A stretch of 15,716 nt of DNA, taken from contig BTVI01000057.1 in assembly GCA_045862955.1 (NCBI GenBank), positions 1 to 15,716 on the forward strand, written 5' to 3'. Made by a program: the position numbers. This stretch comes from Fimbriimonadales bacterium. Lineage in GTDB: Bacteria; Armatimonadota; Fimbriimonadia; Fimbriimonadales; JABRVX01. Positions 1 to 12,000 of this stretch are shown piece after piece. Position 1 is the stretch's first letter. Each line of letters begins with the position of its first letter.

Positions 1-3000
1 GCCTCTTCGCTCGCTCAACGTCTTCCTCAATGCTTTGTCTCAGGCGATTATCTCGCATCAGCACGTGCGCCGACGTGCGCAGCGACGTGCTGAGCGTGTC
101 AAGGGGCTGCCCTGGAGTCGTCTGTGCGTATTCGAACATCCCTCCACCGAACTTTAAGACGCCGCAAGCAATGGCAACTAGAAAGAGCTGCTCCGCTTCG
201 ATCCGACGCAGCTGATAATCTTTGGAAATGACGATGGGGTCCCACTCAACCCCCTTGCGCGACCACGTAGTCGCGGAGTGATTGGCGATGTGCTCCTCGA
301 ACTTGTCACGATATTGCGGCATCGTCGGCGTGAGCCCGGCCACAACTCCTAGCGGGAAGCCCGCGCGTTCACGTACGAACACTACGCGACGAGGGTCGTG
401 CGTATCCTGTCCCTTCACGTTCAGGATGCCTTGCTCGACCGTCTGGAGCGCCTGGGCGACCTCCGGGTACGCGTCGGCCTTTGGGCTGAAGCGGTAGACC
501 CACGCCTTGTTCCCGGTCTCGTAGTGCTGGGCGTCGGCTATGTCAACCTGCAGCAGCAGTTGCGACTGATCAAAAATCCTCTTCAGCTCGTCGTGAGGGC
601 TCCCAACGCGCGTCTTCAACATCTCGAGTACCGAACGCTTGAGCACGACGTCCCGCAGGATCTCTTCGGCGGCTCCCATAAGGCTGTCGCGGTCTCTCTG
701 GCGAGGCACCGCCCGCCGCCGCTTCCGTTCGTCCTCGTTTCCGGGGTCATCGAAGTAGGACCTCCCTGGACGAAACAGGTCATCAGTGAGTTGCCGCCAG
801 GCAGCCAGCACTTGCTTATGGGCTTCCTGCATCGCCTCCTTGAGAGGCATTTTCGCAAACTTCGAGCCTGAGCCCGGCTCGATGAGCTCGTCAAACCCTG
901 CCTTGAACTCCTCGTCCACCGTCCTACCTGGCTCGAACATGCTCGTGCCATGGATATCCGGGCGTTCGTTGGAGAGCGTATTGTCCTCTTCCTCGAGGCG
1001 CTGTTTCACCAGGCGGGCCTGCCCCACGAGGCCATACTGGCTCGTCAACCTCTCCAGAAGACGCTTCACCTCATCGATGATGCCCTCGTACAAGGGCACC
1101 TCTCCGTTCATCTGTACGGTGTCGTCGACGCGACGATCATAGTAGTTCTTCGCGATCTTCGCGTATTGGTCCACGAGCCGCCTAATCGCGGCGCCTCGTA
1201 ACAGCGCTGGACCGAGCGCGGCGTCGTGCGCGCAGGTATCGATCTCACGCTTCACGGCGTTCAATTGCATCAATAACTGATCCACGAGCTGTTGAACGGG
1301 AGTCTTGCTGCCCTCACCGCGGATGGCTCCTAACCGGTCGGAAAGCAGCTTTCGGAGACCCTCCAGAACACACTTAGCTCGGTCCGCCCCGCCGCCCTGG
1401 TAGTCGAGCGCCTCCTCGAAAAGCAAGCGCTCCATGTAACCGCGCAGATCCTTCAGAATCTCGTCGCGAAGCTCGGCCACCCGACCTGCCACAATCTCGT
1501 ACACCTCGCGCGACTCGAACTGCTCGGGCGGCTTGGCGATCCCCGCGGGACGCTCGAAGATCGCTTCCATTTTTTTCTCGAACTCCCACAGTGGGCCGGA
1601 ATTGGCCCTCACAAGACTACAGGCCGCCTGAATCGCGCGACCAATCCTTGCGGCAACCGAGTCCGATCCGCACTCAATCAGTTTCGAAGGAACCTGCGCG
1701 ACATCGAAGCCGATGCCTTCCACAATCCTCTTCATGACCTCGCCGTCCAGCATCTCGAAAGGACTCAGCCACGCCGCGATCGCATGGTGGCACAGCCTTG
1801 ACGTGCAAGCCCGCAGTACCTGGTCTGCCGGATACTCGAGAGAAGCGATCCCGAACGTCATGTATCGCTGAGGGGCCCCATACTTGCTCATATTCTCCAG
1901 ATGCGGGTCTGCGTTGCTCCTCGCCGCGTCCAGCTCCGCATAACCCTGCAGGAACACTTTCGCATACAGGTACTGCGCCACGGCGGTGTTTAGGCGCTCG
2001 CGTTCGGTGTCCGGTGAACCAGAACTGCTCACGAGGTAGACGTGATCGAACGGCGGAGACCCCTCGAACCTGACAGGCCGACCAGGTTTGTGGGCCATCT
2101 GTTGCTCGTACACACTGTCCGGACTGCTGTAGTGGTTCAACTCCGTCAACGCGGAGAACGTGTTCGCCACGTGCTGCGTATTGCCGTATGACACGTGCGG
2201 GAGCGTGAAGATAGCGTCTTGGTATAGATTGTAGCCGCACTCTCGTACTAGATCCCGGAGCATGTATCCGAAGTCAATAAACGCCCCGCTGCAAGTTCCA
2301 CCACACAGCGTGCCTACCACGTACACCTGCACGAACTTCTCCGCTGTGTCGCCGTCACCGAGGTCGATTTTCCATTTGGACTTGTCAAGAGCCTCACCGA
2401 AGCGCTGCGTCGCATCGTGTGAGGTCAGGCCACGCAACGTCTCGATATACGCCTTGACCCTCTCACGCACCGCCGTGAGGTTCTGAGGGTACAAGAATGC
2501 CATGCGGCCGACCATGCGGCAGTTGCCCGCACCGGTTAGGACGTCCTGAATCGCGCTGACTGTCGGCTGGTCGTACCACGATGATAGGCCCATCGTCTCT
2601 TGATAAGCGCTTGGATTCTCGACTAGCGCCTTATACTGCGCCTGCTGGATCGTGATCAGCATTCGGTCCTCTTCGGACAGGAACGTCGAACCCTGATTGG
2701 TTTCGATGCCGAACGCCCTTACCCAAGCAACTTTGTCCCATTTCTGAAGCTCCCATTCGACTCGCTGCACCACCCGATCGCATATCTCCAGCCCGTTCGA
2801 GCCGAGACCGATGAGCAGCGTGCGCCGCGTTGACCAGATCTGGGGTTCTTGGTGTTGAGCTTCATCGACTGCATGCATAATATCGGTCACCTCACTTCCC
2901 TTTGCCCGAGCCATATCGGGCTGGACGGGTTGCAACGAGAACAAGTCCAAACAAGACACAGCCAACCACGAACACCCATGGCATCCACTGAGGCAGCGAC

Positions 3001-9000: not shown

Positions 9001-12000
9001 ACTCCTCTGGATTGGAAAACCCCTTCTGCTGAGCGAGCGCCACGTACGGCTCCGCCTCTGGGTGCCCTGGTGGTAGTCGCAAGGGGCTCTTCAGGTCTGC
9101 GATGACGATGCCGAAAGCCTGATTAGGGTCTCGCTCGGCCTCCACTTCGGCCTCCCTACCGTAGTAACTGGCTCCGCCCAGCGTCCTGTAAATCATCGTA
9201 GGCTCGCGCAGCCGGTCCGGCGGAATAAAGTCAACCGACAGTTCCGGATTAGTCCCAGGAAGAGTATCCCGGATCGCCACTGAGGTATTCTGGGTCCCGA
9301 AGTCCACGCCTACGACGAACCGATACTCCGCTTTCGGCACCAGCCGAGGGATGCGATAAAGCTGCACGAGGGTCGGGGCGTCGGACCCTTCGACGCTAAA
9401 GCGAATCGCAGCGCTCGTTTCTTTAACTGGCGACGCGGGATTGATCGCGACCGTGAACTCCCGGCGCCCTTTTGCCATCAACGAAAAGAGGGCTTCGCGC
9501 GGCGTGACCTCATAGCCGAGAGGCACCTCCATGCGGCAGCTAACGGGTTCATCCCCAGTATTGGTCACCACGAACTTCCGCTTGTCCTCAAGCCGACGGA
9601 AAGGCAGAAACGTCGCGTCAGCAACGAGTCCTCCCGGCGTTCCGACGCGGATGTGCACTTCGAACTCTCCCACCCTGTCCCACGGCCTCTTCACCCACCA
9701 GTTCTCGCCCCTACGCGAGCCTGTGTCGGCGCGCACCGTGAATCGTACAACCCTGTCCTGGTAGAGAGGGGCGACATCAATCTGCAAATTGTCTTCGGCG
9801 CCTGGGTGCAGCAGGCGAAGCCCTGGGTTGGTGATCTCGACACTGTCGTCCTCTTCGCTGACATCTACGCTCGCAGGAGCCTGACCGGGGTTGCGGATTC
9901 GAAGCAGCCGACACTGCTGTTTTTCAGTCGGGACTTGCATCGAACTATCGAGCCACTCCACGTGAGCGCACGGGCGCCCGCACTCTGGACACCATCGCCA
10001 CGATGGTTTCAGAGTGGTTTCGCAATCGCCATCGCCGTGCAGTTCACCACACTTCATCGTTGTCTGCCCTCAAAGAAACTACTCAGTTGACGACACTAGT
10101 CAACTCAACGCGCTGGCGACAGCGTGCACCCGATGGGCACTAGGTCACTCTCCAGTGTCGCTGGGTAGCTTTGCCAGCGAAGATTCTCTTCTTCCAAGTA
10201 TGCGAGTTTCCTTCACCGAGTACAGTGGAAAACCTCTTGTGAAGCGATACGAGGCACTTCGGGGGTCACCACGACCCTCGACCGGTCTGCTCGAAGGGAA
10301 GGAGGGACGCCGCAGCGATCCCACTGACCGGGGTGGTGAGCTAAGGCACGAGGACCGCGTGCGCGGCTCCCCGGAACGGCGCCGCTTTTGCGTGCAGGGG
10401 CAGATGACACGTGCGAGGCGCAGGTGACGCCATCCGCAGGCCAGGGTCTCGTCGAGTTGCTCAGGTCCTGCTCAGGCCGTAGCCCAGCCGGGCTTTCGGC
10501 GCGGCTCATAGTACAGGCGTGGTCACGATAGTGGGCATTTGCGTGACCAAGAGGAGGTTCAGGCAGTGGCTAAGGAGCTTGCGCTGCGAGATGCGCCGTT
10601 TGGGGCGCCTGTCGCGGCCAAAGACGCGCCGGAGATGCTGCTTCGCACCAAGGGCGTAGCGAGGTCACACGCCTCGCCTACCGGCGCGTCCTGAGCCAGT
10701 TTTTCCGCTTCCACACCGGCTCTCCGCACACGCCACAGGCAGTTGCAGGGTTCCTTCGGCTGGACAGCGCAGGCGTCACCCGAGCGATGATGGCCTTCAA
10801 GATCGAGCAGCTGGAGCGCGGAGTAGCCGAGGTGACACTGAACCGCAGGCTGTCGCCAGTGCGATCGCTCATGCGGGTAGCGCGACAGCCTGGAATTACC
10901 GAGGTGAACCCGCACGGGCTGGTTCCCGGCGAGAAGGTGCAGCAGTACCGGGAGACTCGTGGAGTGCCGATGGAGACGCCCGCGTTGGTGCTCTCTCTTC
11001 CCGACACCACGACCGTCGAGCCAAACGCGACGCGACACTCATGTGGCTTCTCTGGGAGCTGGCTCTTCGACGAACCGAGGTGTGCAAGCTTCAGCGCACC
11101 GACTTCGACCCCGACGCTAAGACGCTCTCTGTGCATGGGAAGGGGAAGGGCACGGAGGCGGCGCTCATGACGCTGAGCGATCGGGCGGTACCAGCCAGCC
11201 ACGATTACCTGGCTACCAGCGCCGGCAACCACTCATAGCTCCTTCTCTCCTGCAACCGCTTCAAGGATGACCGTCACGAAGGGCTGAAGGACTGGACGGG
11301 CCTACACAACGTCGAGGAGTATGCGGAGCTCGCCGGGCTCGAGCGCTTCAGCCCGCACCGCTGGCGTCACACTAGCATCACGGCCTACCTGGTTGCCGCG
11401 GGCGGCGACGTTTGCGGCGCACGGAAGCTGAGCCGCCATAGCAAGCTGGAGACGCTGATGATCTACGACGACGCCCGCGAGGACCTCCAGGGAAGGGCAA
11501 CCAGGCTGCGGTCGGAGTTGGCGTAGACCACCACTGTAACGGAACCTCCGCGCGTGCCCCCACCGCTGGGGCCACCCCCCCGTATCACTGCGTGTTGGCA
11601 GAACTGCGTTGCCTCCTTGCCACAACCCCTTCGGTCACGGGAAGGTCCATTATCGTGACCAACTTCAGGGCACTCTGTCGCATGCGCCTCGTCTGGTCTC
11701 GGTCTGCCTGAAGCGGTCATCGCCAACTGCGTTTCTGACTCCCACTCGCTCAGCAAAGGTCGTGTAGCCGTCGAGGCGGATCGGCCTCATCACCTTCATC
11801 ACCAGCCGTGCCAGCTCCTCTAGACAGTGGTCGGCAACGGTACGTCCCTCCAGAACGGCGATTACTGCCTCCGCAAGAGCAGCTCTCAGTCCGTGCATTC
11901 CGTGGTAACGAAGCCAAGACCTTCGGATCCACTCCTCATCACGAGCGGCGTGGCCGTGCTGGGTTGCGAGGTACCACTCGCGGTGTTCGCTTAGGGGCTG

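Follow-up and report, generated by a model that had tools for sequence, protein, structure and literature searches.

The window analysed here, the entire contig C57 (15,716 nt), corresponds to a circularly permuted island of ~18.6 kb at a tRNA-His gene, and its six-gene operon joins a tubulin-like GTPase of the FtsZl1 (Tubulin_2) family with an Hsp70-family ATPase and a GrpE-like protein. We consider it about an even chance (probability around 0.5) that the locus encodes an island-borne, envelope-linked conflict system (anti-phage or anti-mobile-element) of the FtsZl1 kind, equipped with a private Hsp70/GrpE pair.

The operon reported in an earlier note on this DNA proved real: its six genes (g02632 to g02627) lie on the minus strand where that note had placed them, with a spacing that ranges from a 17-nt overlap to a 59-nt gap (Table 1). 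The Pfam scores could be reproduced (Tubulin_2 E 2.5e-52; HSP70 3.2e-8; GrpE 7.7e-6, 26.1 bits), as could the lack of any PADLOC model match to the six genes (E<=1e-3). The lower G+C of the operon was also recovered (0.597 over 1-10057), the genome value being 0.627 by our computation instead of 0.64. Across many of the phylum's families, and at identities of 16-30%, the genes are again arranged as Hsp70, GrpE, propeller, vWA, (small TM), tubulin, with a different gene order in some loci. The promoter scan of the window gave 0 sites, terminators were not in excess over shuffled sequence, and the RNA run X19 covered scattered short pieces at depth 2-3 (contigs only), which we did not count as expression. 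No Walker A motif, DnaJ Pfam match or HPD motif was found among the seven genes (the operon plus the MotA-like gene), and no toxic effector was recognisable in the core gene set. Five HPD[KRV] strings were present in homologous Hsp70/tubulin ORFs.

Table 1. Features of the window, with the evidence on which each assignment is based.
Feature	Position	Strand	Basis
FtsZl1 (Tubulin_2) GTPase (g02627), at least 959 aa, truncated by contig end	1..2878	-	Pfam 2.5e-52, structure model
Small three-TM membrane protein (g02628), 135 aa	2892..3299	-	Hydropathy
Predicted vWA membrane protein (g02629), 417 aa	3316..4569	-	ESM Atlas features, family alignment, hydropathy
Zn-ribbon protein, probable beta-propeller (g02630), 465 aa	4571..5968	-	N-terminal cysteines, weak profile matches
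GrpE-like nucleotide-exchange-factor candidate (g02631), 558 aa	6028..7704	-	Pfam GrpE 7.7e-6, family profile, hydropathy
Hsp70-family ATPase (g02632), 789 aa	7688..10057	-	AlphaFold2, Foldseek, VIA-align, residue conservation
Tyrosine recombinase with a frameshift, flanked by two inverted palindromic sites of 28 bp	10521..11660	+	Site count, XerA/XerD-type match
Island backbone remnant	11610..13215	-	75% identical to G301 backbone downstream of tRNA-His
att region: tRNA-His 3' half (13829-13876) and ~600 nt repeated at start of contig C34	13214..13876	-	blastn
MotA/ZorA-like motor subunit, three TM helices and long helical tail, truncated by contig end	14579..15716	+	Pfam MotA_ExbB 6e-4, PADLOC ZorA1 1.6e-6

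The product of g02632 is a dedicated Hsp70 ATPase that is probably active, and the Hsp70 call, made on a weak Pfam score, holds on the predicted fold and invariant catalytic residues. The AlphaFold2 model (mean pLDDT 90.5) comprises a Zn ribbon (1-35), two beta-sandwich domains (39-235), an Hsp70 nucleotide-binding domain (247-690) and a C-terminal beta-sandwich (695-788), after which the protein ends without a helical lid; the sandwiches may be Ig-like, a reading taken from their all-beta secondary structure and not from a search. The best Foldseek matches were DnaK (E 6.5e-22), and VIA-align gave Z 31.5 with the Hsp110 NBD (rmsd 3.1, 351 aligned) versus 25.2 with MreB; among the matches listed, only Ssz1 spanned the C-terminal sandwich too (Z 28.9, rmsd 7.6, 440 aligned). 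D252, K323, E429, D468, T473 and D475 were invariant in 90/90 alignment rows, and we take the catalytic residues to be the counterparts of DnaK K70/E171/D194/T199. The actin fold nearest to Hsp70s, the phosphate-1, phosphate-2 and adenosine motifs and the catalytic Lys and Glu place the protein in the Hsp70 family, outside the canonical DnaKs (30 bits against a cut-off of 822; no lid; linker columns 686-691 without conserved hydrophobicity). The locus shares the nucleotide-binding fold, the catalytic residues and the GrpE head with DnaK-DnaJ-GrpE and the atypical Hsp70s Ssz1 and Hsp110, but it differs by the extra N-terminal domains, the loss of the lid and the lack of a J-domain gene in the operon. 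Besides this pair, the host genome encodes a DnaK and a GrpE of its own, the DnaK being 25% identical over 259 aa. The Hsp70 family had no match in plasmids, and three weak matches in viral contigs, covering the ATPase part only, were dismissed as generic Hsp70. An 825-859-aa Deinococcus gene located after OmpA was considered as the Hsp70 and dropped, having no Hsp70-profile match in L092/L093.

The GrpE call stands as well: the family profile of g02631 matched six PDB sequences, all of them GrpE (best E 2.4e-9), a homologue gave E 7e-16, and the parts typical of GrpE (a coiled coil, a bundle of helices and a beta head) were all recognised, with a Pfam score barely above the cut-off. The protein has an N-terminal hydrophobic segment, a linker, a TM helix (119-137), the coiled coil, the GrpE head (~390-480) and a low-complexity tail; membrane anchoring, as described earlier for g02631, is not supported as a general feature of the GrpE partner (anchor in 10/38 ORFs). 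In g02630, the N-terminal cysteines are invariant and the DZR Pfam match is weak; weak matches (PQQ_2 E 5.7e-6 for a positional homologue; BamB/YfgL E 0.024) suggest a probable beta-propeller, and the best named ESM Atlas cluster (0.80) is a lead only. g02629, formerly listed as a membrane protein, is a predicted degenerate vWA membrane protein, the usual partner of FtsZl1, with a signal peptide, the vWA domain, a TM helix (284-302) and a cytoplasmic beta domain. Its ESM Atlas features scored 0.94 to an unnamed Deinococcota cluster and 0.93 and 0.91 to VWA clusters, and it has YTPAG where two family members retain DVSGS (no MIDAS); Pfam and the PDB profile search detected no vWA in it. Other loci hold small membrane genes at the position of g02628, to which g02628 had no profile match.

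The g02627 protein matched the whole of PF13809 with 178.8 bits (cut-off 27). Its model (pLDDT 90.2) consists of the GTPase domain, a ~440-aa arm (~350-790, helical at 351-771) inserted in the C-terminal tubulin domain, and a small RecA-C-terminal-like domain (890-959). VIA-align aligned it with CetZ (Z 26.0, rmsd 3.9, 301/342 aligned, model range 17-868) and its end domain with RecA 268-328 (Z 8.8, rmsd 2.1, 61 aligned); the predicted tubulin fold is complete but split by the insertion. A full-length relative, P0139 (97% identical, 1093 aa), ends in a Cys-rich tail, and g02627/P0139 shows the layout of FtsZl1 proteins (~1000-1150 aa), with a long coiled coil in the middle and a globular part at the C-terminus. 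The GTLCGGTCSG motif, previously called invariant, turned out to be present in only 10/61 aligned FtsZl1 proteins; GGTGSG was found in 26/61, and the GGTCSG loop of g02627 in 15/61 relatives. On the helix that follows the T7 position, 60/61 rows conserve a D/N, and this residue and the modelled fold are compatible with GTP hydrolysis and filament formation. FtsZl1 tubulins elsewhere are 16-27% identical to g02627, and a quick tree clustered the Hsp70-linked forms together.

The MotA-like gene converges on the tubulin gene across 2,866 unseen nt (join in run X4) and belongs to the same element as the operon. A relative of its product, P0140, is 93% identical (481 aa). The matches of the MotA family include the TolQ type and its tails are long, like those of ZorA. 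MotA and OmpA/MotB form a pair in relatives, in which the TM Asp of MotB is invariant (14/14). No such partner was found in the assembly (~2.15 kb of the island unseen), the only match resembling an ordinary flagellar MotB, nor among the 42 proteins of a 17,981-nt database contig or in two metagenome scans.

In a sample of 301 genomes of the phylum, 26/38 Hsp70-family matches had a Tubulin_2 gene no more than 14 kb away, and Tubulin_2 was present in 35/37 Hsp70-family carrier genomes versus 109/301 overall, related genomes not being independent. A GrpE head was found in the same stretch for 29/38 matches, a partly circular figure. The earlier observation that Hsp70-like and GrpE-type genes travel with FtsZl1 was borne out. 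The Hsp70 gene was away from the tubulin in 4/38 cases where the sequence was long enough to show it, and many FtsZl1 operons were without Hsp70/GrpE or without MotA/B. FtsZl1 is near-fixed in some families (13/13, 16/19), which fits vertical inheritance. Extra genes at FtsZl1 loci vary (trypsin proteases, a kinase, an EEP nuclease). In 11 further carrier genomes, the flanking genes (183 ORFs, no background control) were mostly housekeeping, with cas genes in 2/11 and a KAP-NTPase-LRR gene in 1/11.

The att region matched C33, which carries the intact tRNA-His, and C34 at 95-97%, and the loose ends carry the tRNA-His 5' half; the window contains just the 3' half of this tRNA, which is why ARAGORN predicted none in it. 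Assembly through the att repeat explains the permutation equally well as a free excised circle. The palindromic sites (10521-10548 and 11633-11660) gave 4 matches versus 0.06 expected, and the recombinase, with its XerA/XerD-type match (E 2.8e-6 at 11269-11523), is 82% identical to the intact Phage_integrase gene of the same-genus genome G301, whose backbone downstream of tRNA-His contains an integrase as well as a ParB-methylase. G301 has the same genes on either side of the slot (80-81% identical), and between them lie a CRISPR array and a type I-C cas operon, a slot swap seen in this one sister genome, whose island spans three contigs; a SoFic gene adjoins its homologous recombinase. Of five stretches of G302 with homologous recombinases, two contained type I restriction subunits and two contained NB-ARC proteins, which together involves three of the stretches. 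FtsZl1 and the Hsp70 family had no match in the two closest genomes. Since a CRISPR system occupies this site in the sister species, the operon may be an anti-virus defence, and the defence role suggested earlier has gained context evidence.

FtsZl1/vWA/OmpA operons were described by Makarova and Koonin (2010; PMC2875224), as already noted; in the parts of that paper considered here, GrpE, DnaK and MotA/OmpA neighbours are in the supplement, with one GrpE (Cagg_1315) and one DnaK (amb2961) in different organisms, the authors left open whether FtsZl1 possesses filament-forming elements, and a reviewer suggested a role in transport or signalling. Shared with those operons are FtsZl1 with a coiled coil, an upstream membrane vWA gene (here g02629, degenerate, from Atlas clusters and the family alignment) and, in Deinococcus, downstream MotA and OmpA, of which OmpA/MotB was not found in our assembly. 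In contrast to the parts considered (PMC2875224), Hsp70 and GrpE form here a recurring block with the Zn-ribbon/propeller gene, the Hsp70 carries a Zn ribbon and beta-sandwiches at its N-terminus and lacks a lid, the seven genes include no P-loop GTPase or kinase, and the g02627 model has a split C-terminal tubulin domain where FtsZl1 was described as having none.

In the sections considered of Kaur et al. (2020; PMC7159879), tubulin and Hsp70+GrpE are separate themes of predicted GTPase conflict systems. The DO-GTPase/GAP1-N2 systems share with our locus the tubulin and membrane vWA theme, Zn ribbons, membrane proximity and the Hsp70+GrpE theme, at times with an Hsp70 without peptide-binding domain; their themes are non-overlapping, on DO-GTPase, GAP1 and FNIII proteins of Firmicutes/Actinobacteria, whereas here they are joined and accompanied by a MotA-type motor (PMC7159879). 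DO-GTPase2 matched our genome below the cut-off only, on another contig, and GAP1-N2 not at all, so that the locus lacks this core in its visible part (~2.15 kb unseen). Zorya comprises a MotA-like ZorA with a long helical tail and a MotB/OmpA-type partner with a TM Asp, features shared with our motor subunit and its relatives' partners, together with weak ZorA/ZorB scores. However, homologues reached 20-21 bits against 100-500 for ZorA in NCBIfam, far under cut-off (no score for the window's protein), ZorC/D/E had no match among the seven genes, and the motor is accompanied here by a tubulin together with a chaperone pair; by analogy, the claim that the motor may work like Zorya stands. The tubulin theme joined with the Hsp70+GrpE theme without a conflict-system GTPase was not found in the literature beyond PMC2875224 and PMC7159879 (subscription journals outside scope), nor was any experimental study of FtsZl1.

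In the conflict system that we favour, damage to the envelope would be sensed by the vWA protein in the periplasm, together with the small membrane protein and the MotA/MotB-type ion motor, and the signal would run via the cytoplasmic tail of the motor to FtsZl1, which would bind GTP and oligomerise, its arm and RecA-like end domain serving as a scaffold or DNA contact. The operon encodes no J-protein, and the lidless Hsp70, its cycle driven by the private GrpE, would keep the complex ready or dismantle it, setting the threshold; the killing or blocking step can be guessed as membrane depolarisation or a physical trap. In its favour we counted the tRNA-His island with CRISPR-Cas in the G301 slot and SoFic beside the homologous recombinase, the absence from the two closest genomes, the G302 recombinase stretches, the Hsp70-Tubulin_2 co-occurrence (35/37) with GrpE linkage (29/38), the invariant MotB Asp with long MotA tails and the fact that Kaur et al., in the sections considered (PMC7159879), assign both tubulins and Hsp70+GrpE to predicted conflict systems; the variable extra genes fit such systems. 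We counted against it the housekeeping flanks, near-fixation, lack of a core effector and weak ZorA/ZorB scores, the Hsp70 genes away from tubulin (4/38), the FtsZl1 operons without Hsp70/GrpE or MotA/B, the failure to find MotB in the assembly, and a slot swap based on one sister genome with its island in three contigs. A more specific version, a novel type of anti-phage machine, strikes us as unlikely: a Zorya-like ion motor would sense an envelope breach and trigger assembly of a tubulin polymer whose 440-residue arm and RecA-like domain trap incoming DNA, the dedicated, J-protein-independent Hsp70/GrpE being an ATP-driven brake and reset. Such a machine would place a bacterial tubulin under the control of a dedicated Hsp70 cycle and would assign the FtsZl1 family a first function.

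Housekeeping flanks in most carriers, clade-wide retention, the complete modelled tubulin fold with its D/N (60/61) and the clustering of Hsp70-linked tubulins would also suit the membrane-remodelling or envelope-maintenance machine proposed by Makarova and Koonin, in which FtsZl1 filaments energised by MotA/B shape or repair the inner membrane while Hsp70/GrpE recycles subunits. We consider this somewhat unlikely in view of the absence from the two closest genomes, the CRISPR-Cas occupation of the slot in G301 and the fast divergence of the components (tubulins 16-27% identical to the query). The Hsp70/GrpE pair could instead serve solely to fold large or periplasm-linked subunits, or to assist the Zn-ribbon/propeller protein, as a private chaperone that never regulates FtsZl1, within an ExbBD/TolQR-like machine for transport or signalling across the envelope. 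The detachable Hsp70-GrpE(-propeller) block (absent at many FtsZl1 loci, away from tubulin in 4/38), the TolQ-type matches and the 2010 reviewer's proposal, in the part considered (PMC2875224), favour this idea, but the genome already has its own DnaK and GrpE, the extra N-terminal domains, lid loss and non-hydrophobic linker point to a specialised role, and 26/38 Hsp70-family matches remain beside the tubulin; we judge it improbable. The island location, the broken recombinase and the varying gene order in some loci could suggest a chance assembly of unrelated cargo genes, which is very unlikely: it is largely refuted by the Hsp70-tubulin linkage across the sample and by a gene order recurring across families at 16-30% identity, and the genes overlap or almost touch.

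The natural slot swap with CRISPR-Cas points to defence, and the locus is a compact unit of ~18 kb that can be cloned whole and has single residues that can serve as handles (K323/E429 in the Hsp70, the T4 loop and N322 in the tubulin, the Asp of MotB). If our reading is right, it would connect tubulin-family polymers, the Hsp70 cycle and 5:2 ion motors, three machines that are mostly investigated separately.

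The six genes of the operon described in the earlier note lie on the minus strand, from window position 10057 to the contig start, with neighbours overlapping by up to 17 nt or lying at most 59 nt apart; the window is all of contig C57, in a host genome of 3.36 Mb that is 97.6% complete. The reported Pfam values of the operon proteins were the same on re-running, and none of the six proteins matched a PADLOC model. The G+C content of the operon is low as claimed (0.597), the genome figure having to be corrected from 0.64 to 0.627. The motif GTLCGGTCSG, which had been called invariant in the tubulin family, was found in just 10 of 61 aligned relatives.

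For the Hsp70-like protein (g02632), a search of 1.84 billion representatives recovered 138 relatives (E ≤ 1e-3), mostly of 750-900 aa, and the query was aligned with 89 of them (90 rows). In its model (pLDDT 90.5), a zinc ribbon and a pair of beta-sandwiches precede an Hsp70 nucleotide-binding domain, and the chain ends in a third beta-sandwich; the helical lid is lacking. DnaK was the top Foldseek match (E 6.5e-22), and with VIA-align six Hsp70-family chains (Z 31.5-28.9) scored above BeeR (26.0) and MreB (25.2). Residues D252, K323, E429, D468, T473, D475 and G626-G627, which by DnaK numbering we take to be nucleotide-binding and catalytic, were kept in 90/90 rows, and g02632 is thus likely, judging from its sequence, to be an active ATPase. 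The linker showed no conserved hydrophobic stretch in the alignment, and the operon contains no J-domain gene.

The gene located 3' of the Hsp70 matched GrpE in several loci (best E 7e-16), and a PDB search with a profile of 29 head regions returned six sequences, GrpE every time (best E 2.4e-9). The N-terminal part of these proteins was variable. The membrane anchor previously attributed to g02631 was recovered here by hydropathy and does not hold as a family trait, a segment of transmembrane strength being present in 10 of 38 ORFs (at least 30 bits, 13 duplicate or plasmid loci left out, split ORFs and three ORFs from a second Hsp70 subfamily taken in). Two tandem GrpE heads were observed in the proteins of loci L077, L080, L081, L083, L087, L088, L089 and L124.

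In g02629, a signal peptide leads into a periplasmic part of Rossmann-like fold, which a transmembrane helix connects to a cytoplasmic beta domain. By ESM Atlas features it matched VWA clusters at 0.93 and 0.91 and, at 0.94, an unnamed cluster from Deinococcota, and two members of its family keep a DVSGS motif. Pfam and PDB profile searches detected no vWA domain in it, and we read g02629 as a degenerate vWA protein. Its profile also matched the gene two upstream of FtsZl1 on two Deinococcus plasmids. g02630 is a zinc-ribbon protein, with a propeller that is probable on weak evidence.

Over its range 17-868, the FtsZl1 model (g02627, pLDDT 90.2) aligned with all of CetZ (301/342 residues, Z 26.0, rmsd 3.9), indicating that in the predicted structure the C-terminal tubulin domain is present, but interrupted by a helical stretch of about 440 residues. 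Position 322, in the helix after the T7 position, was D/N in 60/61 rows and may have a catalytic role. Residues 890-959 (window 2-210) resembled the C-terminal domain of RecA over 61 residues (Z 8.8, rmsd 2.1), a match of modest score for a small domain; the outline of this domain is conserved across the FtsZl1 family. The full-length end, known from a 1093-aa protein that is 97% identical, is Cys-rich.

Tubulin_2 was matched in 109 of 301 genomes sampled from the phylum. With three candidates scored per genome, 38 matches to the Hsp70-family profile reached at least 160 bits and began in the N-terminal domains; they came from 37 genomes, this one among them, and 35 of these genomes have Tubulin_2. 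The list excludes 409 weaker matches, an N-terminal fragment, and another Hsp70 subfamily that two genomes carry next to tubulin. The match lay within 14 kb of Tubulin_2 on the same contig in 26 of the 38 cases, a contig end was at most 3 kb away in 8, and 4 were elsewhere though the genome has a tubulin. A GrpE head was present in the same fetched stretch as the Hsp70 in 29/38, most of these 29 having built the profile; six of the remaining stretches had less than 1.3 kb of room, and three had room and no match. Since related genomes are not independent, these linkage counts are descriptions and not tests. The commonest gene order was Hsp70, GrpE, propeller, vWA, small transmembrane protein and tubulin. 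In a quick tree, the Hsp70-linked tubulins fell mostly in a single supported clade of 37 rows, shared with loci lacking the Hsp70.

A second arrangement was observed in L037 (G017:C75) and L128 (G001:C317): upstream of an FtsZl1 of another clade lay two Hsp70-like genes that lack the zinc-ribbon/beta-sandwich N-terminus, together with GrpE-like genes, one or two in number, which suggests that Hsp70/GrpE was recruited independently. Outside Armatimonadota, one run (L108, titled Paludibaculum sp.) combined an OmpA-like gene with a split tubulin and an Hsp70-like gene of 932 aa. One subclade (L061, L069, L073, L085, L086, L127, L130) had trypsin-like protease gene(s) directly 3' of the tubulin, and these proteases are candidate effectors.

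A 13,008-nt contig from DNA sequencing run X4 consisted of window 13846-15716, 2,866 nt from outside the window, and window 1-8271. The two window ends therefore join, and the MotA-like gene is convergent with the tubulin. For near-identical Hsp70, tubulin and MotA proteins, the longest contig of each was 17,981 nt, in agreement with the joined island. Allowing for the parts of the two cut genes that are missing, about 2.15 kb of the island lies outside known sequence, with room for a MotB. Contig C34 of the same genome starts with the same tRNA-His 3' half as the window and a 95% copy of window 13214-13688. The element is therefore an island of about 18.6 kb between C33, which starts with the intact tRNA-His gene, and C34, permuted either via excision or via assembly through the repeat.

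tRNA-His and repeat features in the window
Feature	Window position	Remark
tRNA-His 3' half	13829-13876	intact gene at start of C33
Inverted 28-bp palindromic sites	10521-10548, 11633-11660	bracket a frameshifted tyrosine recombinase
35-nt direct repeat	13656-13690, 13718-13752	spacing 62 nt; C33/C34 assembly breaks here

In run X6, one contig was short of a single 62-nt unit at the direct repeat, and a 19,959-nt contig (record 29) crossed the att region (window 13214-13876) in another context at a depth of 19, the operon itself being covered at about 4-5; it may represent the empty site of a co-occurring strain. The palindrome-bracketed recombinase is possibly an invertible or cargo-capture cassette. 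An intact homologue in the same-genus genome G301 was flanked by near-identical sites (L163:18397, L166:244), and another genome, G302, had five homologous recombinases, three of them close to genes for type I R-M or NB-ARC proteins.

The genes flanking the island were the same in G301 (80-81% identical). Its tRNA-His is followed by genes for an integrase and a ParB-methylase and by a stretch matching window 11610-13215 at 75% identity; on a small contig the intact recombinase adjoined SoFic; and just inside the far end, at the position of MotA here, lies a CRISPR array together with a type I-C cas operon. As their ends are shared, these three contigs presumably form one island. Neither the tubulin nor the Hsp70 was found in the two close genomes.

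FtsZl1/vWA/OmpA operons have been described (Makarova and Koonin, 2010; PMC2875224), and tables of that paper list MotA plus OmpA for Deinococcus and a single case each of a GrpE and a DnaK neighbour; our locus is one of the FtsZl1 operons. In Kaur et al. (2020; PMC7159879), tubulin and Hsp70 plus GrpE are non-overlapping themes of DO-GTPase/GAP1 conflict systems; a term search of two of its supplements gave no match, the source-data tables possibly being separate. The core of those systems is absent from our locus, which is not a member. Parts of a 2023 phylogeny (PMC9871819) repeat that Tubulin_2 proteins are without FtsZ_C/Tubulin_C Pfam domains, and passages of a 2026 preprint mention tubulins in immune systems just in passing. 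Our literature searches found no description of a combined tubulin and Hsp70/GrpE system.

What is documented here is the composition and linkage of the genes, the protein folds with their catalytic residues, and the position on an island. We consider the operon to be an envelope-linked defence system with a probability of about 0.5. A breach would be sensed by the periplasmic vWA protein and a cell-wall-anchored ion motor, FtsZl1 would then assemble, and a private Hsp70/GrpE cycle would set or reset the threshold. Sensing, assembly, all protein contacts and the effector step are presumed. We hold with less than even confidence the tentative proposal that FtsZl1 itself is the target of the Hsp70. 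MotA-like and MotB-like genes were both present in 7/38 Hsp70 stretches, and also at FtsZl1 loci without the Hsp70; the Asp in the MotB transmembrane segment was invariant (14/14). In part the locus would work like a Zorya-type motor system, while it is not a member of Zorya. The flanks of 11 other carriers (20 stretches, 183 ORFs) were mostly housekeeping, with cas genes in two carriers and a KAP-NTPase-LRR gene in one; these counts, descriptive and without a control set, speak against a general defence-island pattern. Cas3, Cas6, Cas1 and WYL genes were observed a few kb from the operon in L137 (G072:C1), and Cas1 and Cas4 in L142 (G144:C1).

That the operon encodes instead a membrane-remodelling machine seems rather doubtful to us. 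It is unlikely that Hsp70/GrpE is a private chaperone for a transport or signalling machine; the host genome encodes a separate DnaK and GrpE. That the genes are chance cargo on the island appears highly improbable. The combination is real and conserved, and as a combination it is undescribed in the literature found; to this our analysis adds the geometry of the island and a slot shared with CRISPR-Cas.
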